Part shown: positions 3,948-24,129 of the stretch, piece after piece
Layout of the letters: every line of letters begins with the position of its first letter
How positions within the stretch are numbered: position 1 is the stretch's first letter
NCBI RefSeq assembly: GCF_001017655.1
Contig: NZ_CP010904.1
Location: 270,001 to 302,000, forward strand
Direction of reading: 5' to 3'
Source: Kiritimatiella glycovorans
Lineage (GTDB): Bacteria; Verrucomicrobiota; Kiritimatiellia; Kiritimatiellales; Kiritimatiellaceae
Length of the DNA: 32,000 bases
Made by a program: the position numbers and the translations under genes
Notes under the pieces: model-generated
What the model saw: the letters and a program-made list of their open reading frames with translations, nothing else
Databases searched by the model: none
What the model was told of the DNA's origin: nothing

Positions 3948-3963
3948 AGGAAGGGAGAAGTCC
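3948..3963 (+). repeat. 16-bp direct repeat flanking the IS30-family element (right copy)
   Basis: Identical to 2724-2739. It overlaps the hairpin GAAGGG-agaagt-CCCTTC (3950-3967), which is followed by T8 (3968-3975). Confidence 0.85.
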
Positions 3964-4011
3964 CTTCTTTTTTTTGCCTCGCCGCCCCTTGGGGTTCTAT
4001 ACTGAGGCCGC

Positions 4012-7367: not shown

Positions 7368-8048
7368 ATGAATCGCATCGTTATCGCCTTATGCGCTGTT
7401 TTCGTCGCTTTTCCGGTGTGCGCGGAAGAGTGGACTGAGCTGTTCAACGGCAGGGACCTCGAGGGGTGGACCGCGAAGGGCGGCGAGGCGAGCTACGAGG
7501 TCGTGGACGGCATGTTGGTCGGGACCACGAAGCCGAACACCCCGAACACCTTTCTTTGTCCCGACAGGTCATACGCCGATTTCGAGCTGCGGTTCGAGGT
7601 CAAGTGCGACCCGCAACTCAATTCCGGTATTCAGATCCGGTCCGCCGACAAGCCGAAAATGATCCCGGACGCCCTGGGGCCGGTAGTGCGCGAGAAGGCG
7701 CGCCGCCGCGTGCGCAGCGGATCGCTCTGCGGACCGCAGGTGGAGATCGCCGCCAACGGGAACGCCGGCGGACTCTGGTTCGAGGGCGTAGGCGGATGGA
7801 CGCTCAAGCCGAAGCCGGAGCTGGCGAACGAGGTGTACCAAAAGGATGGCTGGAACGAGTACCGCATCCTGGCCGACGGCCGGCGCGTCGCCGTATGGAT
7901 CAACGGCACGAAGATCAGCGATGGTCCCGACGACCGTTCCGGAATGAGCAGCGGCTATCTCGGATTCCAGGTCCACGGCGTAGGCGCCCGCAAAGACCCG
8001 TTGCGCGTGCGCTGGCGGAACATCCGCATCCGGACGCTGGACGACTGA
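7368..8048 (+). CDS. Secreted DUF1080 (3-keto-disaccharide hydrolase-like) domain protein
   Basis: Signal peptide MNRIVIALCAVFVAFPVCAEE. Typical DUF1080 motifs are LFNGRDLEGW, FELRFEVK, NSGIQIRS, GWNEYRI and YLGFQVHG. A GGGAGGA RBS is present. Confidence 0.8.
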   Translation: MNRIVIALCAVFVAFPVCAEEWTELFNGRDLEGWTAKGGEASYEVVDGMLVGTTKPNTPNTFLCPDRSYADFELRFEVKCDPQLNSGIQIRSADKPKMIPDALGPVVREKARRRVRSGSLCGPQVEIAANGNAGGLWFEGVGGWTLKPKPELANEVYQKDGWNEYRILADGRRVAVWINGTKISDGPDDRSGMSSGYLGFQVHGVGARKDPLRVRWRNIRIRTLDD

Positions 8049-8093
8049 CCGCATCCTTCGGGCTCGCCTGCTTCAATGGTGTATCGGAAGAGA

Positions 8094-8123
8094 ACCACCG
8101 ATTACACCGATCGCACGGATGAT
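8094..8123 (+). repeat. 9-nt periodic module (CACCGATTA CACCGATCG CACGGATGA) of the extragenic element family; intron-free paralogue of the group II intron insertion site
   Basis: Three 9-nt units read directly. The minus strand of 8094-8121 matches the exon sequence flanking the intron at 24 of 28 positions. Confidence 0.7.
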
Positions 8124-8151
8124 GATAAGAAGGAAAAAGGGGCAGCCCAGG

Positions 8152-8236
8152 TTGTCGGTATGGCGAAGCGGCTACGGAAATGGAAAGAGATCGGAAGCAG
8201 AGTTTCTGAAACCGGCATGACTTCGGCCTTTTCGTG
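8152..8236 (+). repeat. 85-bp direct repeat, copy 1
   Basis: 82 of 85 positions identical to 11835-11919 (TTGTCGGTATGG..GGCTACGGAAATGGAAAG.GATCGGAAGCAGAGTTTCTGAAACCGGCATGACTTCGGCCTTTTCGTG). Confidence 0.9.
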
Positions 8237-8459: not shown

Positions 8460-8687
8460 ATGCCAAGCACAGCCGAGATCATACACGAAGCGGAGTCCCT
8501 GCCCGTGGAGGAACGTGCGGTCGTGGTCGACTCTCTATTGCGTTCCCTCAATCCCCCGGACCCGGAGATCGACCGGAAATGGGCGGCTGTCGCCAAACGG
8601 CGACTTGATGAACTCCGTTCAGGCCGCGTCAAGCCCGTCCCGGGAGAGGAAGTTTTCGCAGAGATCCGCCAGCGATTCGCGGTATGA
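8460..8687 (+). CDS. Type II antitoxin, putative addiction-module component (TIGR02574-like)
   Basis: 75 aa: MPSTAEIIHEAESLPVEERAVVVDSLLRSLNPPDPEIDRKWAAVAKRRLDELRSGRVKPVPGEEVFAEIRQRF. The pattern (LP.EER...L..SL....DPE.D..W..E..RR..E..SG....P.EEVF) is the one I recall for this antitoxin family. A GTGAGG RBS is present. The stop overlaps the next ATG (ATGA). Confidence 0.7.
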   Translation: MPSTAEIIHEAESLPVEERAVVVDSLLRSLNPPDPEIDRKWAAVAKRRLDELRSGRVKPVPGEEVFAEIRQRFAV

Positions 8688-8712
8688 CATTCTCTTTCCA
8701 TCCTGTAAGCAG
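8684..8712 (+). pseudogene. Remnant N-terminus of a RelE/ParE-type toxin (MTFSFHPVS...), truncated by AT-rich DNA
   Basis: It is translationally coupled to the antitoxin. M..F.FHP is the usual start of the RelE/ParE partners of this antitoxin family. Base composition drops sharply after about 8712, and the rest of the toxin fold is absent. Confidence 0.4.
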
Positions 8713-8899
8713 GGGAGGTTGTAAAATGTACTGTAGAAAAACAAGCCCTATTAGTTACTTCGTCATAGCAGCCTTATTCAGCTTATTAGTGTTTGTGTCA
8801 TTTGGAATATCATCCTGGTTATTCAGCGGTAAATGGTGTGGTGGCATGGATTGGCGGGATTTAATTACTAAGTCGGAAAGAGAAATGATATTAGAATAA
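8684..8899 (+). CDS. Chimeric small ORF: toxin remnant fused in frame to a hydrophobic single-helix peptide (an internal ATG at 8726 is an alternative start)
   Basis: 71-aa ORF. Residues 20-45 (ISYFVIAALFSLLVFVSFGISSWLF) form a predicted TM helix. The DNA is AT-rich, about 38% GC in the 60-nt line I counted. No family was recognised. Confidence 0.35.
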   Translation: MTFSFHPVSRGGCKMYCRKTSPISYFVIAALFSLLVFVSFGISSWLFSGKWCGGMDWRDLITKSEREMILE

Positions 8900-8974
8900 T
8901 GCGGATTAAGTAGGCACTGCAGTGATGAAAGATTTTATGGATCTGTATGTGATTACTTAGTCAATAGAATCATT

Positions 8975-9427
8975 ATGAATCCTGAAAATGGTGATTTTGA
9001 TGAGGATCTTCTACTGCGGTTTAAATCCTATTGTGCCACGCGAAAAGGGGAGGAAGACGAGTACAGAGCCGGTCTTTCCTATACTTTAGCGACGATGCTT
9101 CTCAAGGCCAACAAAAAGCGGTCTGAATGCAGGCGGGAACTTGATCACGTAGAATCTGCGGATTATTCTTTTTATAAATATGGGAAGCCGGCTCGGCCTC
9201 TATCCAATCGCGATGGACATCATGCAGGGGATTCTGATTGGGCGGAAGAGTGGCGGGAATACTATCGTGATCAGGAATTCCGGCGACGGAGGAATATGCG
9301 TAATGTGTCGGAGGTGAAGCGGTTCAGGGGACAGTGTATAAATGGCCGAGGGGAGGACTATGTTAGTCAGAAAAAAAGTGAATGGAATAGATATTTAAAT
9401 GAAATAATAGTGAATAGTAGAAATTAA
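8975..9427 (+). CDS. Hypothetical protein in the AT-rich cassette (150 aa, charged, no family recognised)
   Basis: Longest ORF in the low-GC stretch. It is a hydrophilic protein rich in E, R and K (MNPENGDFDEDLLLRFKSYC...). I recognised no similarity to any family. Confidence 0.5.
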   Translation: MNPENGDFDEDLLLRFKSYCATRKGEEDEYRAGLSYTLATMLLKANKKRSECRRELDHVESADYSFYKYGKPARPLSNRDGHHAGDSDWAEEWREYYRDQEFRRRRNMRNVSEVKRFRGQCINGRGEDYVSQKKSEWNRYLNEIIVNSRN

Positions 9428-9545
9428 ATAAATCAGTAGCATCCTATAGGGCCCCATATCGGGGCATAGAGCTTGTGGCGGGACAGAAGGGTCCGCCTAA
9501 TGCATTATTGGCGATTGGAAAGGATCGTTGATGTTTTTCATGTTC

Positions 9546-9828
9546 AGTTTTTGAGAAGGCGGTCGCGAATAGAAAGTCGTTCGGGGAAAAGGGCGGGGTG
9601 CGGAAGATCAGGGAAAGCGTAGAATCGAGATCGTGGGGAGAGAATGGGATTCACCATGAAGGCCATGAAGAGCATGAAGGGGTGAACACAATTCGTACTC
9701 TTACTCGTACGCGTACTCGGAGCGCCGAAGGCGCGATCCCCCTCCCCGTGTTCAAGGAACTCGAGTACGAATTATGTTCTCTCTGAATCCCGATTTCGAG
9801 TTCCCATCCGTGTCCTCGGTGTAATCCG
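9546..9828 (+). repeat. Composite extragenic element: purine-rich 6-nt periodic tract, 3 x 9-nt block, GTAC-rich palindromic core, then an inverted 9-nt module interrupted by the intron
   Basis: An AGTTTTTGAG start at 9546. ATGAAGGCC ATGAAGAGC ATGAAGGGG at 9656-9682. Perfect 11-bp arms AATTCGTACTC (9690-9700) and GAGTACGAATT (9763-9773) enclose the hairpin GCGCC-GAA-GGCGC (9722-9734). About 62 of 68 aligned positions are identical to 22604-22671. Confidence 0.75.
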
Positions 9829-10306
9829 GTGCGCCAAGCAAAGCTTGGCTGTTTCTAACTGAATGAAAGGAGTCAGTCGTGTGAATTGATCGTTGCACAT
9901 GTAGCCGACCCAGCGGTGATCGGGGGTAACCCCGGCGTCGAAGCCTGGGAAGGCGAACGCGTGAGCCGTAGCGAAAGCGAACTTGATTCAGCCTCGTTAC
10001 ACAAGCCGAGGGCGGCCAGCCTATCGGATATGATGAAGCCAGCACTTGTCGGGAAGGAACGGTCATAAGCACCGGCAAGGCCCTCCGGGGTAACAAGAGA
10101 CGGCGCGCGCAGAAAGAACAGCCAGGAACTTGGGAGGCCCGCCGTGATGTCGGGTAAGCCGACAAGCCCGTGGGGGAATCAATAACCTCGGGGGTGATCG
10201 CGTGCGGGAGTCGGAGAGGCTCGTAGTAGTGATGAAGCGGGGTAATGCCCGTGGAGCGAAGGGGTCTCGGCGGAAGACGAGCTGAGTAAGAAGCGCGGGG
10301 GACTGA

Positions 10307-11650
10307 TTGGTGAAACCTATGACAGAAGAAGCGACGGAGTACTATCGCATTGACGACAGACTCTTGCCGCCGAAACTCGCCGCGCTGAGACAGAAGCTGA
10401 GTCAGAAGGCCAAACAGGAGAAGCGGTTTCGCTTCTACAGTCTCTATGGCCACATTGGCCGGGCCGACACTCTGCTGGCGGCATGGAAACATGTACGCGC
10501 CAACGGCGGAAAAGAAGGCCCCGATGGTGTGACCATCGAGGACATCGAACAGAGTCAAGGAGGAGTCGAAGCCTTCTTGGCGGATATTGAACGCAGCCTG
10601 AAGGATCGAACCTACCGTGCTGGAAAAGTGCGGCGGGTCTACATCCAGAAGGTGAACGGGAAACTCCGTCCCTTGGGAATACCCTCGGTGCGGGATCGGG
10701 TCGTGCAGACCGCTACGGTTCTGATATTGGAACCGATCTTTGAAGCTGACTTCAAGGATTGCTCCCATGGGTTCCGGCCTGAGCGCTCGGCGCATGATGC
10801 GTTGAAGGCGATTGGACAGGAGCTCCGGCAAGGGCGGTGTGCGGTGTATGATGCGGATCTGGCCGGCTATTTCGACAGTATTCCACACGACAAGCTCATC
10901 GCTTGTGTGCAGATGCGTGTCACCGACCGGTCCGTGCTGAAGCTGATCCGAATGTGGCTGAAAGCGCCGGTAGAGGAAACGGAGAAAGGCAAACCGCCGA
11001 CCGTGAAGCGCAACGACAAGGGCACGCCGCAAGGCGGGGTCATTTCGCCGCTTCTGGCCAACATCTATCTGCACTGGTTCGATGCGGTGTTTTACCGCAA
11101 AGACGGACCGGCACGGTGGGCGAAGGCCAAACTGGTGAGGTACGCCGATGACTTCGTGGTCCTCGCCCGGTATATCGGTCCGCAACTCGAAGCGTTCATC
11201 GAAGCCAAGATAGAAGGGTGGCTCGGGCTGAAGATCAACCGGGACAAGACCCGGATACTCGATGCTCGGGAACCGGGGCAGACGCTGGACTTTCTCGGAT
11301 ATAGCTTCCGCTATGACCGGGACCTCGGCGGACGCCCGTGCCGGTACTGGAACCTGACACCGTCGCGGAAAGCGCTCCAACGGGAACGTGATCGGCTTCG
11401 GGAGATGACCGGACCGGAACAATGCTTCAAACCTCTGCCGACGGTGATCGACGAACTCAACATGCAAATGCGAGGATGGGCAAACTACTTCTCGCTGGGT
11501 TATCCGCGTGTGGCATTCCGCCACGTCAATGGATACGTGCGACAGCGTCTCACGCGACATGCGAAACGACGCAGTCAGCGCGGCTACTGGCCCCCTGAAG
11601 GTATGAGCTACTACGCGCATTTCAAGAACATGGGACTGATCTACCTGTGA
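10307..11650 (+). CDS. Group II intron reverse transcriptase/maturase (no endonuclease domain evident)
   Basis: RT motifs [54 protein letters not shown] and the YADD box ([11 protein letters not shown]). The C-terminal X/maturase region has RGWANYF. The ORF opens at TTG 10307; ATG 10319 (MTEEATEYY) is the likelier start. Confidence 0.93.
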
Positions 11651-11676
11651 AACCATCCAACAAATGCCTTCCGCGA

Positions 11677-11709
11677 GAGCCGGATGCGGGAAATCCGCAT
11701 GTCCGGTTC
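11677..11709 (+). ncRNA. Group II intron domain V (catalytic hairpin)
   Basis: GAGCCGGAUGCGGGAAAUCCGCAUGUCCGGUUC. It has the AGC triad, a 2-nt bulge on the 3' strand, a GAAA-type loop and a canonical length of 33-34 nt. Confidence 0.8.
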
Positions 11710-11834
11710 GACGAGGGGGAGGGCAGTCCGCGGTCATTGGCTATACGCCTCTCATCCCGTGGCTCCCTCTCTACTCTACTGGTCGAAAACACAAGAAAGG
11801 TCTTACTTACAGGGGTCCGATCCCGTTTAGTTTA

Positions 11835-11919
11835 TTGTCGGTATGGGGAGGCGGCTACGGAAATGGAAAGGGATCGGAAGCAGAGTTTCTGAAACCGGCA
11901 TGACTTCGGCCTTTTCGTG
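11835..11919 (+). repeat. 85-bp direct repeat, copy 2
   Basis: 82 of 85 positions identical to 8152-8236. Confidence 0.9.
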
Positions 11920-11941: not shown

Positions 11942-12265
11942 TCAGAGGTCCAGCTGCGTCGCGACTGCCTGCGCAACACGCTCCATATCGGCGGGCGATA
12001 GTGCTCCTGATTTCTTGATCAGGCGTTTCTTGCTGACCGTGGTCAACTGATCTGCCATCGCCTTGGATCGGTTGCTGCGGTACGTCACGTATGCTTCGCT
12101 TGGGTAGAGCTTTCCGGTTGAACTTGTCAGCGGCACGACTTGCACACGATTCAGAAATCTGTTGGCCGCGTCGTTGCTGACGATGACGGCCGGACGCTGC
12201 TTGCGTATCTCCCCGCCGACTGAGGGATCGAAGTTGATCCACCAGACTTCAGCTCTCTTCATCAC
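11942..12265 (-). CDS. Type II toxin, MazF/PemK family endoribonuclease
   Basis: MMKRAEVWWINFDPSVGGEIRKQRPAVIVSND...VVPLTS...AMADQLTTVSKKRL. This is the canonical PemK/MazF signature. The gene overlaps the upstream antitoxin gene by 17 nt. Confidence 0.88.
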   Translation of the reverse strand: MMKRAEVWWINFDPSVGGEIRKQRPAVIVSNDAANRFLNRVQVVPLTSSTGKLYPSEAYVTYRSNRSKAMADQLTTVSKKRLIKKSGALSPADMERVAQAVATQLDL

Positions 12266-12694: not shown

Positions 12695-12767
<73 letters not shown>

Positions 12768-12774
12768 GCGCGAG

Positions 12775-12803
12775 AATGTAAGGATTCCGTTCGGAGGATG
12801 CAA
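12775..12803 (-). promoter_or_regulatory. Candidate sigma70-type promoter of tRNA-Lys
   Basis: The minus strand reads TTGCAT - 17 nt - TACATT, then 7 nt to the first tRNA base. Confidence 0.5.
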
Positions 12804-12815
12804 CCCGGAAGGGGG

Positions 12816-13060
12816 GAGTTTTTTGAGTGGGAGGGTGTTTTGAGTGGGAGGGCTGAAACCTGAAACCTGAGTAAGAAGTTAGAGTCAGAATCAGAGTCAG
12901 AGTCAGAATCAGAGTCAGAGTAAGAGTAAGAGGGAGTGAGAAGCCTGAGTTTTTGAGTGGGAGGGCTGAGACCTGAAACCTGAGTAAGAAGTTAGAGTCA
13001 GAATCAGAATCAGAGTCAGAGTAAGAGGGAGTGAGAAGTCTGAGTTTTTGAGTGGAGAAT
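12816..13060 (+). repeat. Tandem repeat block: units of about 95-112 bp (GAGTTTTTGAGTGGGAGGGCTGA.ACCTGAAACCTGAGTAAGAAGTTAG...), each containing a variable hexamer array (AGTCAG/AATCAG/AGTAAG)
   Basis: Unit starts were read at about 12816 (short unit), 12836, 12947 and 13042 (truncated). Unit 1 has 8 hexamers before AGGGAG and unit 2 has 5. The plus strand is strongly purine-rich. Confidence 0.85.
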
Positions 13061-13065
13061 AAGAG

Positions 13066-13132
13066 CTATCGGAATCGAGTTTCACTGCAGAGATCACAGA
13101 ACACGGAAAGAGCAGAGAACATTTTGATTCCG
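13066..13132 (+). repeat. TTCAC / 9-nt periodic module closed by a GGAATC...GATTCC stem
   Basis: CTATCGGAATCGAG-TTTCACTGCAGAGATCACAGAACACGGAAAGAGCAGAGAACAT-TTTGATTCCG. It parallels CTATCGAAATCGGG-CTTCACCACAGAGAACAT-GATTCG at 22571-22608. Confidence 0.65.
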
Positions 13133-13139
13133 GCGCGGC

Positions 13140-16100
13140 TCATTCGTCCAGCGTTTCGCGGACGCGTTCGGCGAGGGTCTGAATGGAGAAGGGTTTGGGG
13201 ATGAAGCGGACGCCTTCGTCCAGCACGTGGTGGTGGGCGATGGCGTTGGCGGTGTAGCCGGACATATAGAGCACCTTGATCCCGGGGTGCAGGCGCTGAA
13301 CTTTTCCGGCCAGGTCCTTGCCGCTCATGCCGGGCATCACCACGTCGGTCAGCATCAGATCGACCTGTTCGTTGTGGTCTGCGAGCACGGTCAGCGCTTC
13401 ATCCCCGCCGTGCGCCGTGAGTACCTCGTATCCGAGCTGAGCCAGCATCGTCGATCCGAACTGTAAAACGGAGGTGTCGTCTTCGACGAGCAGGATCGTC
13501 TCGCCGCCGCGGGGGGCCTGCCGGTCGTCCTCCGACGGGGTGTGTTCGGCGGCGTCGCCTTTGTGACGAGAGAGATAGATTCTGAAGGTCGTACCCTCTT
13601 CGGGTTCGCTGTAGACGTTGATGAATCCGTTGTTCTGCTTCACGATCCCGAATACCGTGGCCAGCCCCAGGCCGGTGCCTTCGCCGACGCCCTTGGTGGT
13701 GTAGAACGGATCGAAGATGTGTTCCCGGGTCTCCTCGCTCATCCCGCAGCCGTTATCGCTTACCCCCAGCATCACGTAGTCGCCCGGTTTGAATCCGGGA
13801 TGCTCGTCGCAGTAGGTCTCGTTAAACGAGACGTTTCGCGTCTCGATCGTGACCATGCCCACCCCGTCGATCGCATCGCGCGCGTTCACGCAGAGGTTGG
13901 CCAGAATCTGGTCGATCTGGGTGGGATCGAGGTTGACGGGCCACAGCTTCTCCGACGGCTGCCAGGCGAGGTCGATATCCTCGCCGATCAGGTGGCGCAG
14001 CATCTTCAGCATCCCCGTGATGGTGTCGTTGAGGCTGATCACTCTGGGGACGATGGTCTGGCGGCGCGCGAAGGCGAGGAGCTGGCGCGTGAGGTCCGCG
14101 GACCGCTCCGCGGCGCGGCGCAGTTCCTCGAGGTGCTCGCGCAGCTCGAGATGGTCGCCGGCCTCGGCCAGCGCCAGTTCAGCGTACCCCATGATCGACT
14201 GCAGCTTATTGTTGTAGTCGTGCGCGACGCCACCTGCCAGGCGGCCGATCGACTCCATCTTCTGGGCCTGGCGGTACTGGTTTTCCAGTGCGATCTCGCT
14301 GGTGATGTCCCGCTTGACGGCCACGTAATTGACGATGTTTCCGCGCGGGTCCAGTACCGGCGAGATGGTGGCCTCTTCCGTATACTGCGTCCCGTCTTTA
14401 CGCTGGTTGACGAAGTTTCCCTGCCACGTCCGCCCTTCCGTAATCGTGGCCCAAAGGGTCTCGTAGAAGGCCCGGTCGTGTTTCCCGCTCTTGTGGATGG
14501 CGGGGGTCTTCCCGAGGGCCTCGTCGCGGGAGTAGCCGGTGACCCGTTCGAACGCGGGATTCATATAGAGGTAGTGCGCGTCCGCATCAGTGACGACGAT
14601 GCTTTCCTCGGTATGCTCGATCGCGGTCATCAGCCGTTCCAGTTCCATTTCGCGCTTCCGGCGTGCGGTGATGTCCGTAGTGAACCCGTCGATCGTGAAC
14701 GGGCCGTCCTCGCGCCGACCCGAGATGCGTGCGTTCATCGAGAGCCATAGCTCTTTCCCCCCTTCGCCGCGGGCCTCATATTCGAAGTTTTCCACGTGTC
14801 CGTGTTTTTTCAGCAGGTGGAGGAATTCGGCCCTTCGTTCGGGACGGGCGTAGAGTTCGGCCCCCAGGTCCCGGAGTTCTTCGACGGCCTGCCGCCCCGA
14901 GTGAAACCCAAGCATCCGGGCCATGGCCGGGTTGGCGGCGAGGACATTCCCGACCGAGGTGGTGGTAAAGATCCCGATCGGCGCCGTCTCGAAGAGGGTT
15001 CGGAATCGCTGTTCGCTTTCCTCCAGCGCCTCGCGCGCGCGCCGTTCCTCGGTCTGGTCGCGGAAGACGAGCACGACGCCCGATACGGTTCCTGCGTCAT
15101 CACAGATCGGCGCGCCGGAGTCGGCGATCGGGCGTTCGGTGCCGTCGCGGGCGACCAGGACGGTATGGTTCGCGAGCCCCGCCACCTTATTCTCGCGCAG
15201 CACGCGGTCGACGGGATTCTCGACCTCCGCGCGCGTATGTTCGTTGACGATCTGAAAGATGTCGTGGAGATCCCGCCCCAGAACCTCGTCCTGTGTCCAG
15301 CCGGTGAGGGTCTCGGCCACGGCATTCACCAGTTCGATGCGGCCTTCCGCGTCCGTCACGATAACCCCGTCGCCGATACTGCGCAGGGTGGTCCCGTAGC
15401 GCGTTTCGCTGCGCCTTCTCGCGCGCTCCGCCTCGTAGCGCGCGCGGTAGTGGAGCTTCCGTGAGCGCTGGACGACCACGTAGCCGCCGATGACCACCCC
15501 CGCGGCGAGCCCCAGCGTCAGCAGAAAGACCATCAGCGTCTCGCGGCGCATGGTGGCGAAGGCCTCGGCGGTGTCGATTTTGGCGACCATGGCCCAGGGG
15601 GAGTCAGGAATAGTCCGCGTCACCGAGAGCACATCCTCGCCGCGGTAATCCTTTCCGCGCATCACGCCCGAGTATCCCTGCAGCGCCCGGGTCGCCGGGA
15701 GGTTGGTGCGGCTCATCGGCAGCCGGAAGTTCAGCGCGGTATTTTCCCGGTGGCGGAGTTCGTTCAGGAACAGGACCTGGTCCCCTTGCCGCCTGACCAG
15801 GACGATCTCGGCGGTCTCGCTCGGCGTGGGCCAGGACTGGATGAGCGGGTAGAGGTAATCGCGGGCGTCGCAGATGAGGATCACGGCGCCGAACGGGGGG
15901 GCGTCTTCGCCGTGATCCGGGAAGAGCGGGGCCACGACGCTCAGGTGGGGGGTATCGACGAGCTGGCCGCGGTGCATGCCCAGGATTTCCGGCCTGCGTT
16001 CGCGGGCGGCCAGCCGGAACGTATCGCGCGCGGCCTCCAGGTTGGACGCCGGCCACTCGCCGAGGCGGAAGCGCACCCGGAGATTGGTGTCCACGAGCAG

Positions 16101-16424
16101 TACCTCGGAGTAATCGTATCGCTCGGACAGGCTTCTGAATAAGGTCTCCAGCTCCGCGCGTCCGCCGCCGTCCGGGTCCCTGATCCACCGTTCGGCATGT
16201 GCGGTGAAGAAGGGGTTTTCCATGAGCACGCCCCCGTCGCTGACGCGTTCCTTGAGCCACAGGGAAAGCTCGAACACCTTGAGGTCCGCGATCGCGGTGA
16301 GGTCCTTCTCGACTTCGCGGCGGAGGTCCTGCCGGAAGCTGTGCACGAAAGCTGTGCCGGTCAGTGCGAGCGCCAAGAGGGACACGGCCACGATCACTTT
16401 TATCCAGGACACCACAGGTTTCAT
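13140..16424 (-). CDS. Membrane-bound hybrid sensor histidine kinase (TM - periplasmic sensor - TM - 3x PAS - HisKA - HATPase_c - receiver)
   Basis: 1094 aa. The N-terminal TM helix is VIVAVSLLALALTG and the second is LMVFLLTLGLAAGVVIGGYVVV. The H-box is GGVAHDYNNKL, the ATP-binding boxes are NLCVNARDAI and DNGCGM...GTGLGL, and the receiver is ILLVEDD...LMLTDVVMPGMSG. Confidence 0.9.
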   Translation of the reverse strand: MKPVVSWIKVIVAVSLLALALTGTAFVHSFRQDLRREVEKDLTAIADLKVFELSLWLKERVSDGGVLMENPFFTAHAERWIRDPDGGGRAELETLFRSLSERYDYSEVLLVDTNLRVRFRLGEWPASNLEAARDTFRLAARERRPEILGMHRGQLVDTPHLSVVAPLFPDHGEDAPPFGAVILICDARDYLYPLIQSWPTPSETAEIVLVRRQGDQVLFLNELRHRENTALNFRLPMSRTNLPATRALQGYSGVMRGKDYRGEDVLSVTRTIPDSPWAMVAKIDTAEAFATMRRETLMVFLLTLGLAAGVVIGGYVVVQRSRKLHYRARYEAERARRRSETRYGTTLRSIGDGVIVTDAEGRIELVNAVAETLTGWTQDEVLGRDLHDIFQIVNEHTRAEVENPVDRVLRENKVAGLANHTVLVARDGTERPIADSGAPICDDAGTVSGVVLVFRDQTEERRAREALEESEQRFRTLFETAPIGIFTTTSVGNVLAANPAMARMLGFHSGRQAVEELRDLGAELYARPERRAEFLHLLKKHGHVENFEYEARGEGGKELWLSMNARISGRREDGPFTIDGFTTDITARRKREMELERLMTAIEHTEESIVVTDADAHYLYMNPAFERVTGYSRDEALGKTPAIHKSGKHDRAFYETLWATITEGRTWQGNFVNQRKDGTQYTEEATISPVLDPRGNIVNYVAVKRDITSEIALENQYRQAQKMESIGRLAGGVAHDYNNKLQSIMGYAELALAEAGDHLELREHLEELRRAAERSADLTRQLLAFARRQTIVPRVISLNDTITGMLKMLRHLIGEDIDLAWQPSEKLWPVNLDPTQIDQILANLCVNARDAIDGVGMVTIETRNVSFNETYCDEHPGFKPGDYVMLGVSDNGCGMSEETREHIFDPFYTTKGVGEGTGLGLATVFGIVKQNNGFINVYSEPEEGTTFRIYLSRHKGDAAEHTPSEDDRQAPRGGETILLVEDDTSVLQFGSTMLAQLGYEVLTAHGGDEALTVLADHNEQVDLMLTDVVMPGMSGKDLAGKVQRLHPGIKVLYMSGYTANAIAHHHVLDEGVRFIPKPFSIQTLAERVRETLDE

Positions 16425-21252: not shown

Positions 21253-22533
21253 ATGCCTAATTTTCATTACATCGCACTCGACGCCAAGGGCAACGAGGTG
21301 GAGGGAACGGTGTCGGCCGACAACCAGTCGGCGGCCATCAGCAAGGTGCGCGAGAAGGGACTGTACCCCTCGAACGTGTCCCTGAGCGAAGGCGGCGGGG
21401 GCAAGAAGAAGAGCAAGCCGAAGAAGGGCGAGTCGGACGGTAAATCCGGCGGCGGCATGAAGACGGAGATCAAGCTCCCGCTGCCGGCCGGACGCGTGAA
21501 GCCGAAACAGCTGATGACCTTCACGCGCCAGCTCGCCACGCTGGTTCACGCCGGCATGCCGCTGGTCAGGGGACTGCAGGTGCTGGAGCGGCAGGAGCGG
21601 AGCCCGCGGCTCAAGAAGGCGATCGGCGAAATCATCGAATCGATCCAGGGCGGCCAGACGTTTGCCGAATCACTCGCCCAGCACGGAAAGATCTTCGACC
21701 GCCTCTACGTCAACATGGTCAAGGCCGGCGAACTCGGCGGTGTGCTGGACGTGGTGCTCGACCGTCTGGCGCTGTTTATGGAGAAGGCGCAGAAACTGAA
21801 GAGCACGATCATCAGTTCGATGGTCTACCCGGTCGTCGTGCTGATCGTGGCCGCCGGTATCGTCGGCTTCCTGATGACCTATATCGTGCCGCGGTTCGAG
21901 CAGATCTTCAACGATCTCCTGCAGGGAGCCAAGCTGCCTGCGCTGACCCAGTTCGTGATGAATCTGAGCGAGAAGCTGACCACCGGTCTGCTGCCGACGA
22001 TCGGAGTGATCGTGGGGATCGTCGTGCTCGTCAAGCTGCTGGGCAAACTGCGTGCCGGGCGTTATGCGGTCGATTACATCAAGCTGAAGATACCGCTGTT
22101 CGGCAAGCTGCGTCGTCTCAGTTCGATTTCGCGTTTTTCGCGTACGCTGGGCACGCTGATGGCATCGGGCGTGCCGGTGCTGCAGGCCCTGACCATCGTG
22201 CGTGAAACGGCCGGCAACATCCTGATCGAAAACGCGATTAACGAGGTGCATGACGCGGTCAAAGAAGGGGAGAACATGGCGCCTCCGATCGAGGCCTGCG
22301 GACTGTTCCCGCCCATCGTGGTGAGTATGGTCGAGGTCGGCGAAGAAACCGGTGAGCTTCCCAATATGCTCATCAATATTGCGGACGCCTACGACGACGA
22401 AGTCGACAATGCCGTGACGGCGCTGACTTCGATCATCGAGCCGCTGCTGATCGTCATGCTCGCGCTGGTCGTGGGCACGATCGTCATCGCACTCTTCCTC
22501 CCGATGATCAATATTATCGGCAAGCTGGGCTGA
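21253..22533 (+). CDS. Type IV pilus / T2SS inner-membrane platform protein (PilC/GspF family)
   Basis: 426 aa with two T2SSF repeats (FTRQLATLVHAGMPLVRGL and FSRTLGTLMASGVPVLQAL). A Lys/Gly-rich linker (GGGGKKKSKPKKGESDGKSGGG) follows the N-terminal domain. Confidence 0.9.
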   Translation: MPNFHYIALDAKGNEVEGTVSADNQSAAISKVREKGLYPSNVSLSEGGGGKKKSKPKKGESDGKSGGGMKTEIKLPLPAGRVKPKQLMTFTRQLATLVHAGMPLVRGLQVLERQERSPRLKKAIGEIIESIQGGQTFAESLAQHGKIFDRLYVNMVKAGELGGVLDVVLDRLALFMEKAQKLKSTIISSMVYPVVVLIVAAGIVGFLMTYIVPRFEQIFNDLLQGAKLPALTQFVMNLSEKLTTGLLPTIGVIVGIVVLVKLLGKLRAGRYAVDYIKLKIPLFGKLRRLSSISRFSRTLGTLMASGVPVLQALTIVRETAGNILIENAINEVHDAVKEGENMAPPIEACGLFPPIVVSMVEVGEETGELPNMLINIADAYDDEVDNAVTALTSIIEPLLIVMLALVVGTIVIALFLPMINIIGKLG

Positions 22534-22712
22534 GTGGAATCAGAGTAAGTGGGAGTGGGAATCGCTGTCGCTATCGAAATCGGGCTTCACCACAGAGAAC
22601 ATGATTCGTACGCGTACTCGGAGCGCAGGAGGCGCGATCCCACTCCCCCGATTCAAGGAACTCGAGTACGAGTACCGCTTCGCTGAGTACGAGCACGAGT
22701 ACGAGTACGATA
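22531..22712 (+). repeat. Composite extragenic element, second full copy (purine-rich hexamer tract, TTCAC module, palindromic core, GTACGA-type hexamer array)
   Basis: TGAGTGGAATCAGAGTAAGTGGGAGTGGG starts at the pilC stop. CTTCACCACAGAGAACAT lies at 22585-22602. The core 22604-22671 aligns to 9691-9771, and hexamers GAGTAC/GAGCAC/GAGTAC run to about 22710. Confidence 0.75.
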
Positions 22713-22715
22713 TTT

Positions 22716-22746
22716 CCCTGAGTGTCCCAATGCGGTGAACTCAGGG
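22716..22746. terminator. Perfect 8-bp stem-loop between convergent genes (CCCTGAGT - 15 nt - ACTCAGGG)
   Basis: The inverted repeat was read directly. A second palindrome, GACCGG-c-CCGGTC, abuts the regulator stop codon. Neither has a clear U-tract, so terminator function is only a guess. Confidence 0.3.
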
Positions 22747-22770
22747 GTCGAAGAGGTCGGACCGGCCCGG

Positions 22771-24129
22771 TCAATCCGACAGCTTGCGGTAGAGCGTGGC
22801 GAGGCTGATGCCGAGGGCCCTGGCCGCCTCTTCCTTGTTTCCGCCGGTGCTGTCGATCACGTTCTGGAGGTATTCTTTCTCCTTGGAGCGGAGAAAGGCC
22901 TTGAGCGACTTGCCCTTGTACTCCTCCGCACGGCTGGGGGACTCGACGCCCTCCTGCTGTACGGACTCGACGATCTTGGCCGGAAGGCTCTCGCGGGTGA
23001 TCACGCCCTCCTTCTCAAAAGTGAGCGCGTGTCGGATCGCGTTTTCCAGCTCGCGCACATTGCCGGGCCAGCCGTAGTTCTCCAGGATATGCCGCGCTTC
23101 GTGGTCCAGCGTAGGCAGTTCCCGGTCCGGCCCGATTTCGCGTCGCATCAGGTACTTGGCGAGCGGCAGCAGATCTTCCGGGCGGTCGCGCAACGGCGGG
23201 ATTTCGATCGTGATTACACTGAGGCGGTAGTAGAGATCCTCCCGAAACCGTCCCTCGCGGATCAGATCCTCGAGCGGGCTGTTCGACGCCGCGACCAGAC
23301 GGACGTCCACCTCCACGTTTTTCGTTCCGCCCACCTTGCGCACGACCTTGTCCTGCAGGGCGCGCAGGAGCTTCGACTGGATATTGAGCGGCATCGCGCC
23401 GATTTCGTCGAGGAAGAGCGTGCCGCCGCTGGCGGCTTCGAAGAGGCCGGTCTTATCGGAGCTCGCACCGGTGAAGGCTCCCTTCACATGACCGAACATC
23501 TCCGACTCCATGAGATTTTCGGGGAGCGCGGCGCAGTTGACCGGCATGAATTCATTATTCGCGCGGGGGCTGTGACTGTGGAGCGCCCGGGCGACCAGTT
23601 CCTTGCCCGTGCCGCTTTCGCCGTAGATCAGCACCGTGGTGCTGGTCGGCGCCACCCGCTCGACCATGTCGCACACCTTGCGCATCGCGGGGCTTTCGGC
23701 GATGATGTTGGTGAGGCGGGTCTTGGTTTCGAGCTGATTTTTGAGCCCCTTGTTCTCGATGAGGACCGAGTAGTACTCGAGCGCGCGCTGCACGGTCACC
23801 AGCAGTTCGTCCAGCTTGAAGGGCTTGGTGATGTAATCGAAGGCCCCCTCCTTCATCGCCTCCACGGCGCTGTTCACCGACCCGTAGGCCGTCAGCATGA
23901 TGACGCCGGTGTCCGGGGACATGTTGCGGGCGCGGCGGAGCACTTCCATGCCGTCGATTGCTTCCATGCGGATATCGGAGACCAGCAGGTCGTAGGCGTT
24001 CTGCTGCAGTTCCGCGAGGGCCGCCTCTCCGTTATCGACCGGCGTCACCTCATATCCCTCCCCGCTGAGAATCTTGTTCAGCAGATTCAGCACCACCGGT
24101 TCATCGTCGACTACAAGTATTCTGGCCAT
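22771..24129 (-). CDS. Sigma54-dependent response regulator (NtrC/PilR-like: REC - AAA+ - Fis-type HTH)
   Basis: 452 aa. The receiver is ILVVDDEP...LLVSDIRM. The AAA+ domain has GESGTGKELVARALH, the GAFTGA motif (VKGAFTGA) and an ESELFGH-like SEMFGH. The C-terminal HTH is AARALGISLATLYRKL. A GGAGGG RBS is present. Confidence 0.9.
   Translation of the reverse strand: MARILVVDDEPVVLNLLNKILSGEGYEVTPVDNGEAALAELQQNAYDLLVSDIRMEAIDGMEVLRRARNMSPDTGVIMLTAYGSVNSAVEAMKEGAFDYITKPFKLDELLVTVQRALEYYSVLIENKGLKNQLETKTRLTNIIAESPAMRKVCDMVERVAPTSTTVLIYGESGTGKELVARALHSHSPRANNEFMPVNCAALPENLMESEMFGHVKGAFTGASSDKTGLFEAASGGTLFLDEIGAMPLNIQSKLLRALQDKVVRKVGGTKNVEVDVRLVAASNSPLEDLIREGRFREDLYYRLSVITIEIPPLRDRPEDLLPLAKYLMRREIGPDRELPTLDHEARHILENYGWPGNVRELENAIRHALTFEKEGVITRESLPAKIVESVQQEGVESPSRAEEYKGKSLKAFLRSKEKEYLQNVIDSTGGNKEEAARALGISLATLYRKLSD

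Follow-up and report, generated by a model that had tools for sequence, protein, structure and literature searches.

The DNA analyzed here is a 32,000-nt stretch of the Kiritimatiella glycovorans chromosome (NZ_CP010904.1, positions 270,001 to 302,000), which we call the window. It contains four intergenic loci made up of short repeated words, designated A (8078-8236), B (9546-9828, resuming at 11780 and reaching about 11800), C (12816-13135), and D (22528-22770). All four lie at the 3′ ends of genes, and B is interrupted by a group II intron. As judged by alignment, a single noncoding element of ~240 nt is present in full length at both B and D, in copies that have diverged, while C corresponds to the 5′ part of that element only, in tandem duplication, and A is a separate nonamer hairpin. 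Our statements about the species cover the 32 kb of the window, which holds these two full copies; loci of other genomes and contigs are given as L followed by a number.

With the intron removed, B and D aligned over ~240 nt with 144 of 218 columns identical, compared with 87 ± 12 and a maximum of 110 when D was shuffled. A core at 9705-9770 and 22606-22671 was identical at 60 of 66 positions (91%, E=3.7e-20) and had a 12-nt, two-hexamer gap directly upstream of it, which agrees with a sequence-only reading of this DNA that had counted about 62/68 identities and a 12-bp, two-hexamer indel. Overall divergence between the copies reached 34%, their indels were word-sized, and the 9-nt word array of B is a 35-nt insertion relative to D. 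The alignment passed straight over the intron insertion site (TAATCCG^TGGTCGAAAAC in B and AACTCAGGGGTCGAAGAG in D, with ^ marking the junction), and the nonamer array of B aligned with D 22713-22757 across it, so that what breaks off at 9828 does continue at 11780, as had been claimed, with the intron filling 9829-11779. Within the window, the 14- and 20-mers flanking the core occur at these two sites only, and GTTTTTGAG(TGG) is confined to B and C. The 3′ arm of B (9762-9800) is the reverse complement of the 5′ arm of D (22574-22614; local alignment score of 46, null maximum of 25), and the core therefore sits within a long imperfect palindrome.

The two remaining loci are related to this element in other ways. 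In locus C, 13013-13037 is 88% identical to D 22537-22561 (score of 35, null maximum of 25), and 13065-13093 matches D 22570-22598 at 24 of 29 positions by hand count. Locus A lacks both the purine tract and the core, and its array CACCGATTA CACCGATCG CACGGAT (8094-8121) is the reverse complement of B 9805-9828 joined to 11780-11783 (score of 36, null maximum of 28), a relation of 28 nt that covers the intron site, and the end of B also aligns with the reverse complement of A, ...TAATCGGTGGTTC. The ATGAAG block of B has no homologue in this array of A. The sequence-only reading had treated the four loci as equivalent copies assembled from the same three sub-modules, namely (a) a purine-rich tract, (b) a TTCAC-led block of 9-nt units, and (c) a GTAC-rich core, and in this it went too far: all three are present only in B and D, the duplicated 5′ part at C holds (a) and (b), and the inverted nonamer array at A holds neither (a) nor (c). 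No further copies of the modules were found in the window by motif scanning; outside it, the core did not turn up in 2.8 Mb of fetched DNA searched with its nhmmer profile and, by BLAST, with all loci. Three element-specific strings had no matches among viral contigs, the 15 matches of TTCAAGGAACTCGAGTAC in a genome collection were taken as chance (the two examined were coding DNA), and CTCGGAGCGCNNNNGGCGCGA gave GC-rich chance matches in metagenomes, none of which could be extended.

Table 1. Features of the four loci and of the genes around them (^, intron insertion site).
Feature	Position	Strand	Remark
Locus A, small hairpin GGTGTATCGG...CCGATTACACC, overlapping nonamers ACCACCGAT TACACCGAT CGCACGGAT	8078-8121	+	
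85-nt direct repeat, copy 1	8152-8236	+	
Element B, left part: AGTTTTTGAG start, then purine-rich tract	9546-9649	+	Aligns with D 22528-22586
Element B, TTCACC + ATGAAGGCC ATGAAGAGC ATGAAGGGG + TGA, nonamer array	9650-9685	+	Not in D
Element B, nested hairpin: outer arms GAACACAATTCGTACTC / GAGTACGAATTATGTTC of TCGTAC/GAGTAC hexamers; inner GCGCC-GAA-GGCGC hairpin	9684-9779		
66-nt conserved core, copy 1	9705-9770	+	91% to 22606-22671
Element B, 3′ arm CGAGTACGAATTATGTTCTCTCTGAATCCCGATTTCGA	9762-9800	+	Reverse complement of D 5′ arm
Element B, nonamer array of pyrimidine-arm type: CATCCGTG TCCTCGGTG TAATCCG^TG	9805-9828	+	Resumes at 11780-11783
Group II intron	9829-11779	+	Rfam and Pfam
Element B, right end (TGGTCGAAAAC...) and spacer before 85-nt repeat	11780-11834	+	
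85-nt direct repeat, copy 2	11835-11919	+	
Locus C, tandem units ×2.3: GTTTTTGAGTGGGAGG + GGCTGAA ACCTGAA ACCTGAG heptamers + GAGTCA/GAATCA/GAGTAA hexamers	12816-13062	+	
Locus C, right end GCTATCGGAATCGAGTTTCAC...ACATTTTGATTCCGG, hairpin closed by CGGAATC/GATTCCG	13065-13135	+	Homologous to D 5′ arm
Element D, left end CTGAGTGG AATCAGAGTAAGTGGGAGTGGGAA	22528-22561	+	TGA 22531-22533 is the pilC stop codon
Element D, 5′ arm GCTATCGAAATCGGGCTTCACCACAGAGAACATGATTCGTACG	22570-22614	+	Reverse complement of B 9762-9800; resembles C 13065-13093
66-nt conserved core, copy 2	22606-22671	+	Outer stem and GCGC/GCGC inner stem kept
Element D, GAGTAC hexamer array, longer than in B	22664-22710	+	GAGTACGAGTAC matches
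Element D, 3′ hairpin CCCTGAGT...ACTCAGGG, then GGTCGAAGAG	22713-22757	+	Uninterrupted homologue of B intron target region
3-keto-disaccharide hydrolase	7368-8048	+	
76-aa ORF without family assignment	8461-8688	+	
150-aa ORF without family assignment	8975-9427	+	Inside low-GC stretch 8.7-9.5 kb
MazF toxin gene	11942-12265	-	
tRNA-Lys	12695-12767	-	
Hybrid histidine kinase	13140-16424	-	
PilC (T2SSF protein)	21253-22533	+	Pfam
Sigma-54 response regulator	22771-24129	-	

The words from which the loci are built comprise hexamers (GAGTCA/GAATCA/GAGTAA, of which the tract of C and the left end of D are composed, and GAGTAC/TCGTAC), heptamers (NNNCTGA), and nonamers (ATGAAGNNN and CACSGATNN). Tandem Repeats Finder detected them as arrays of period 9 (×3.0 at 9654-9680 in B), period 6 (×4.5 at 9693-9719 in B, ×9.3 at 12877-12932 and ×6.3 at 12990-13027 in C, and ×4.3 at 22685-22710 in D), and period 7 (×2.6 at 12853-12870 in C), all of which lie outside credible genes. 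These four hexamer arrays bear out the 6-nt periodicity that had been described, and the 9-nt periodic units proposed for sub-module (b) were found in the B array ATGAAGGCC ATGAAGAGC ATGAAGGGG but not at 13080-13122 or 22585-22602, neither of which is a regular 9-nt array. The tandem units of C measure 113 and 95 nt and differ, by hand count, by exactly three GAGTCA-type hexamers, and locus C (12838-13045), immediately upstream of tRNA-Lys, is likely a variable-number locus. Its heptamers (12845-12872 and 12958-12985) place a TGA every 7 nt and thus a stop in all three forward frames. The + strand of 9546-9690 contains 57 G and 19 C in 145 nt, giving the - strand a C-rich, G-poor composition (C 39%, G 13%) that is shared by 12816-13062 (C 35%, G 9%) and, in D, 22534-22600 (C 33%, G 19%). 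Locus C also carries 13 GANTC sites in 372 nt at 12783-13126, compared with ~3.9 per kb elsewhere. We rejected this clustering of CcrM/HinfI sites as a feature of its own, since the excess arises from the GAGTCA/GAATCA hexamers of the locus, and locus A has 0 such sites. GAGTC is also the site of a nicking or restriction enzyme.

Folding better than shuffled sequence was restricted to two segments, the core of B and the 3′ hairpin of D. The nested hairpin of B reached -34.3 kcal/mol on the + strand (z -4.03) and -42.3 kcal/mol on the - strand (z -4.53), with 0 of 200 shuffles as good. The perfect 11-bp inverted arms and the GCGCC-GAA-GGCGC hairpin reported earlier are present, and the arms extend to 16 matches in 17 nt (9684-9700 and 9763-9779). 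The 3′ hairpin of D (-17.2 kcal/mol, z -3.51) has no counterpart in B. Weaker values were obtained for the hairpin of A (-13.5 kcal/mol, z -1.75) and for the right end of C (z -2.15), where the motif TCGRAATCG.G.TTCAC is present, and the whole elements folded like shuffles (z -0.45 to -1.9). The description of the loci as structured is therefore right for the B core and the D 3′ hairpin and does not extend to the whole elements or to the core of D. All 15 predicted pairs are invariant between B and D; 13 of them lie in the two stems, and the six substitutions all fall outside these stems, so the stems are retained in the second copy, as had been noted.

Element B owes its interruption to a mobile group II intron with the ends GTGCG...CTAC. 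It combines the 5′ GUGYG and 3′ AY ends with a reverse transcriptase (RT)/maturase open reading frame (ORF) in domain IV (10307-11650) and domain V/VI, and it matched Rfam RF02005 at 9869-10101 and RF00029 at 11675-11779. The RT matched RVT_1 and GIIM in Pfam and TIGR04416 at 364 bits (cutoff, 300), with no endonuclease-domain match in Pfam. The GTGCG...CTAC boundaries are common to 16 homologues whose RTs are 76-92% identical (loci L138-L140 and L370-L383). At 11 of the 16 homologous junctions the intron sits at ...YCYG^TG... in (NNCTCYGTG)n arrays, mostly in the last unit before GGTGAA/GGTTAA, as in L380 (cctctg^tgcctccgtggtgaatattc) and L139 (ctctccg^tggttaaac), and the junction in the window (taatccg^tggtcgaaaac) conforms to it. 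Outside the pattern are L140 (...attcg^tag), the three junctions of tandem introns (...ttcg^tgt), and L381, for which no 3′ boundary could be located. Tandem introns in L370, L372, and L373 lie one 10-nt unit apart (ctac^tgtccattcg^GTGCG), with successive units each occupied. These junctions show that the resident intron lineage has its natural homing site in the pyrimidine-rich arm of the nonamer hairpin, and it is for this reason that element B is interrupted; given the junction pattern, the interruption is targeted and not accidental.

Group IIC introns are known from positions downstream of inverted repeats, terminator stem-loops among them (PMC1702495), and by analogy with these targets the nonamer hairpins may behave as terminator-like stem-loops. 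As with the terminator stem-loops and attC sites used by IIC introns, the intron here lies at the 3′ side of an inverted repeat; unlike them, insertion takes place within the last units of the 3′ arm and not after the stem, and any unit can be used.

Words of these loci recur far outside K. glycovorans: CACRGATTA nonamers, NNNCTGA heptamers, and TTCACC-(ATGAAGNNN)n are found in many viral and metagenomic contigs unrelated to one another, mostly as hairpins directly downstream of genes. One comparison comes from L139, a 21-kb locus found through its RT homologue, which carries hexamer arrays of GATTAC/GATTAG/AATCCT (981-1015, 9249-9275, and 11493-11600), one of them forming a long hairpin, at a density similar to that of the window but with a different hexamer, the hexamer word being genome specific (GAGTCA/GAGTAC here and GATTAC/GATTAG there). 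L139 also contains CACGGATTA four times, TTCACCACAAAAGAACA, comparable to TTCACCACAGAGAACA of D, the string TTCACCACA-AGAACA of the D 5′ arm (9370-9392), and an array, ACCACGGAT TACACGGAT TATACGGAT ATCACGGAT, that opens with 14 nt identical to the reverse-complemented end of B. The nonamer word of locus A recurs both in L139 (9330-9363) and in L069. In viral contigs, two consecutive copies of CACRGATTA (CACRGATTACACRGATT) were found in at least 120 stretches, compared with 54 and 36 for two composition-matched permuted controls, and among the matches listed, arrays of three or more units made up 36 of 104, compared with 6 of 52 and 7 of 30 in the controls. An exact inverted unit followed downstream in 14 of the matches listed and preceded upstream in 0. 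The typical form, a (CACRGATTA)n...(TAATCYGTG)n hairpin, occurs in L069 (898-1005) and in viral loci L141 to L260, often bracketed by TTCACC...GGTGAA, often with a GC hairpin inside it, and in some cases with a T-run downstream (T10 in L235; also L378/L380). In Rfam, these equivalent hairpins of other loci gave only sub-threshold microRNA-precursor matches. The long ORFs flanking 21 nonamer hairpins were arranged as ++ in 5 cases, -- in 4, +- in 1, and -+ in 0; the hairpins stand at gene 3′ ends or between genes of like direction, and 0 stand between divergent genes. Translations of (CACRGATTA)n hairpins (TDYTDYTD, HGLHGLHG, NPCNPCNPW, and ICVICVICG) matched no protein family.

The heptamer word of locus C, GCTGARACCTGAAACCTGA (GGGCTGA/AACCTGA), was present in 20 viral contigs against an estimated chance expectation of ~1, usually as AGGGCTGAGGGCTGA[AG]ACCTGAAACCTGA, and in 9 of the 13 resolvable viral cases it lay 0-40 nt after a co-oriented ORF. 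These viral heptamer loci are L235 and L351-L369, of which L359 has a tandem duplication much like that of locus C. In L364 the heptamers are followed by 9-nt periodic CACGGAG/CGCAGAGAA words and in L369 by TTTACC ATGAAGAGC ATGAAGCTC ATGAAGGAC TAA, which is nearly the TTCACC array of B. The GC content of the viral contigs with shared words spans 0.41-0.67. Judged by these matches, sub-modules (a) and (b) are words of a vocabulary common to many unrelated genomes.

The claim that no architecture of this kind has been described was too strong. The short tandemly repeated repetitive (STRR) sequences of cyanobacteria consist of tandem 7-bp units that fold into hairpins between genes, and their proposed roles are transcript stabilization, translational coupling, and termination (PMC2670836). 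Like them, the window elements are intergenic tandem repeats of short period in which an array pairs with its inverted copy, often near the 3′ end of the upstream gene (PMC2670836); in the B and D cores, the arms are formed by (TCGTAC)n and (GAGTAC)n. STRR sequences have 7-bp units and belong to filamentous cyanobacteria, whereas here units of 6, 7, and 9 nt are strung together in a member of the Kiritimatiellota, with one ~240-nt composite present as dispersed copies at two loci. The arrays of the window are also noncoding tandem arrays of 5-11-nt units that exceed chance length, as are long simple sequence repeats. For these and for the TAACTGA repeats of Beggiatoaceae, Cyanobacteria, and Bacteroidetes, an origin by slippage has been proposed, and they are patchily distributed across phyla (PMC4679880). 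The TAACTGA repeats and the heptamers of the window are both intergenic words ending in CTGA that supply forward stop codons at gene boundaries (in all three + frames in C; the pilC TGA in D), with a patchy distribution suggesting horizontal spread. TAACTGA itself was not found as the unit, which is GGGCTGA or, at 12845-12872, GGCTGAA/ACCTGAA; moreover, the arrays here have 3-4 units, stand mostly just after a stop codon and not before a start, and are accompanied by hairpin arms.

Other repeat families offer looser parallels. The BOX elements of Streptococcus pneumoniae and the bacterial interspersed mosaic elements (BIMEs) of enterobacteria have fixed end modules, variable internal units, and a stable structure, and they lie in 3′ untranslated regions or between genes. 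They share the modular intergenic design but have no sequence relationship to the elements described here, whose modules are micro-tandem arrays. Repetitive extragenic palindromic (REP) sequences are 20-40 nt long with a conserved 5′ tetranucleotide and are accompanied by a gene for a REP-associated tyrosine transposase (RAYT). As in REP sequences and their inverted pairs (REPINs), there are extragenic imperfect palindromes at gene ends here, but no REP-type unit was found, the hairpins consist of tandem words, and a Pfam scan of ten ORFs of the window recognized no transposase family. These repeats go unmentioned in the genome paper of K. glycovorans (PMC5148204), and searches of a limited library by sequence or peptide strings returned nothing relevant. 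A composite family in the Kiritimatiellota, the sharing of several of its words with distant genomes, the TTCACC...GGTGAA nonamer hairpin, and an intron lineage homing there all seem to be undescribed.

Taking these observations together, we lean toward the view that the elements are simple sequence repeats of the STRR type that form hairpins at gene ends, have been diversified by slippage, and are probably terminator-like or 3′-end protecting. They do not look like a specific riboregulator, and the sequence-only reading of a modular, hairpin-prone, noncoding intergenic family at gene ends is supported. The loci are strings of short tandem words in direct arrays, and the same words in opposite orientation form the arms of nested hairpins. 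Slippage is proposed because the copies differ by whole-word indels, and slippage during replication could account for the 12 nt in the core arm, the 18 nt between the C units, and the block of three 9-nt words in B, with local duplication or recombination as a possible further source of copy change. The elements may follow directly on stop codons (the pilC TGA is the first word of D), and when transcribed they would form 3′-end or intercistronic hairpins that could act like terminators or shield the 3′ end of the transcript. The C-rich, G-poor tracts on the - strand downstream of the histidine kinase and sigma-54 regulator genes could in addition load Rho, whose utilization sites are unstructured C-rich, G-poor stretches of at least 80 nt on the transcript. 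After pilC in two relatives (PilC 69-70% identical; not syntenic downstream of pilC), there is a hairpin-plus-T-run terminator and no such element (L136 3930-4010 and L137 4040-4095).

Several results weigh against this interpretation. The D core folded no better than shuffles (z -1.07 and -0.88), and compensatory pairs between B and D, which the sequence-only reading had proposed to look for, numbered 0 of 15, although two copies can show little. Neither the B nor the D hairpins are followed by a T-run, and a terminator scan returned nothing in D and only weak sites in B, at 9711-9694 (-) and 11812-11824 (+). Locus C is antisense to both of its neighbors and lies upstream of tRNA-Lys, slippage alone does not account for identical words in distant genomes, and the ORF-orientation statistics come from crude ORF calls and small samples. 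No window element combines a GC-rich hairpin with a T-run in the manner of an intrinsic terminator. Intrinsic terminators are rare across the window overall, and the sole convincing canonical one is at 3948-3969 (AGGAAGGGAGAAGTCCCTTCTT followed by T6).

The surroundings of the loci have features of their own. A and B share an 85-nt direct repeat (8152-8236 and 11835-11919, 96% identical), which the sequence-only reading had not singled out and which is a separate feature outside the B/D element, without a fold signal (z 0.08) and without a match elsewhere in the 2.8 Mb of fetched DNA. It flanks a 3.6-kb segment containing small unassigned ORFs, a low-GC stretch, element B, and the intron, and this segment may mark an insertion or duplication junction. 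The low-GC stretch (8690-9500; GC 46-47%, compared with 63% for the genome) is probably foreign DNA, and the 150-aa ORF within it had no match in Pfam, NCBIfam, or the protein collection. An addiction-module antitoxin as the product of the 76-aa ORF at 8461-8688 found no support in Pfam or NCBIfam. An island attached to tRNA-Lys was rejected, the 3′ end of the tRNA not being repeated within the window. The largest repeats of the window (D1, D3, and I1-I5; 70-75% identity), at 16.6-22.5 kb and 26.5-28.5 kb, are unrelated to the elements and look like paralogous secretion/pilus ATPase genes, by gene position alone.

A further possibility, which we regard as rather doubtful, is that the K. glycovorans elements are local members of a widespread and hitherto undescribed class of post-stop or intercistronic elements with a common, horizontally spread vocabulary, a conserved function, and a dedicated intron lineage homing to the pyrimidine arm. 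If there is such a class, its words might be TTCACC-(CAC/ATG + purine nonamers)n...(complement)n-GGTGAA hairpins and (NNNCTGA)n heptamers with stops in three frames, a definition put forward tentatively. It might, as a guess in which we place little confidence, serve as a platform for a common RNA- or single-stranded DNA (ssDNA)-binding protein or be a distinct class of terminator.

Among the three functions the sequence-only reading had considered (a REP-like or miniature inverted-repeat transposable element [MITE], a structured RNA, or a protein-binding array), a REP/MITE-like element comes closest. As a MITE, B and D would be transposed copies, their long inverted arms (TCGAAATCGGG.TTCA...GAACAT.ATTCGTAC) the transposase-binding ends, and C and A fragments. 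Two copies 13 kb apart with a core 91% identical suit this explanation, as does a neighborhood rich in mobile DNA (the intron, a MazF toxin gene, and the low-GC insert) in a genome with 75 transposase genes and 12 putative islands (PMC5148204). We nevertheless consider it unlikely, as the inverted arms are internal, with B/D homology reaching past them on both sides, and by eye the outer ends are not complementary and neither terminal inverted repeats nor target-site duplications are seen at the boundaries of homology. The left boundary of D is a stop codon, a divergence of 34% with word-sized indels is unlike recent transposition, and scanning ten ORFs of the window against Pfam revealed no related transposase.

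The same words, direct and inverted, could instead be cooperative protein-binding sites on DNA, RNA, or ssDNA, for which the heptads of the omega repressor and the MetJ boxes are models at the DNA level. Identical words across unrelated genomes (CACRGATTA, GGGCTGA/AACCTGA, and TTCACC-ATGAAGNNN), a purine arm that strictly comes first (14:0 among the matches listed), and a fixed position directly behind a stop codon or ahead of the next start codon are in keeping with this proposal, and MacGregor has made the same one for TAACTGA repeats, with S1, Csp, or CsrA-type binders (PMC4679880). However, no candidate protein was found, the hexamer word varies by genome (GAGTCA/GAGTAC versus GATTAC/GATTAG in L139), a GC span of 0.41-0.67 that includes viral contigs would call for a near-universal binder, and the 14:0 bias follows in part from the symmetry of inverted repeats. 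Binding arrays of this kind are thus improbable in our estimation.

A specific structured RNA, cis-regulatory or small, with the nested stems as its functional unit would account for the stability of the B core (z -4 to -4.5) and for the 13 stem pairs that are unchanged between B and D with all six substitutions outside them. Yet six substitutions, or about four events, would miss the stems by chance with an estimated probability of ~0.05-0.13, no pair is compensatory, and at both the gathering and E<10 thresholds Rfam matched only the intron and the tRNA. The D core and both whole elements fold like shuffles, the D 3′ hairpin is not in B, the hairpin forms equally well on either strand, which a palindrome at the DNA level would be expected to do, and upstream of D, the one element examined in this respect, there is no promoter-like site. 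A specific structured RNA is not supported and is very unlikely. Least probable are small proteins (MKAMKSMKG at 9657-9686, a 62-aa ORF at 9598-9786, and 45-aa ORFs in D), for although both copies have open frames and (ATG AAG NNN)3-stop recurs in L369 as MKSMKLMKD, the ATGAAG block is not in D and has a complementary, hairpin-forming arm in L369, B and D differ by a 23-nt shift in the frame that links the core with the TTCACC block, the C-terminal parts bear no relation to each other, the putative start codons are not homologous, and none of ten candidate ORFs occurs in a collection of 15 billion proteins or matches a Pfam or PHROG family. The earlier judgment that these ORFs are not credible proteins agrees with this, and by these comparisons the loci are noncoding.

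For annotation, it follows from this work that the four loci should be marked as noncoding repeats and the ORFs drawn across them dropped. For decades, STRR, TAACTGA, and long simple sequence repeats have been on record with no assigned function. The shared words, the fixed place at stop codons, the replacement of a canonical terminator after pilC, and the targeting by an intron give handles on the role that such repeats may play, and they open the question of whether these elements are terminators or stabilizers, protein-binding platforms, or neutral products of slippage.

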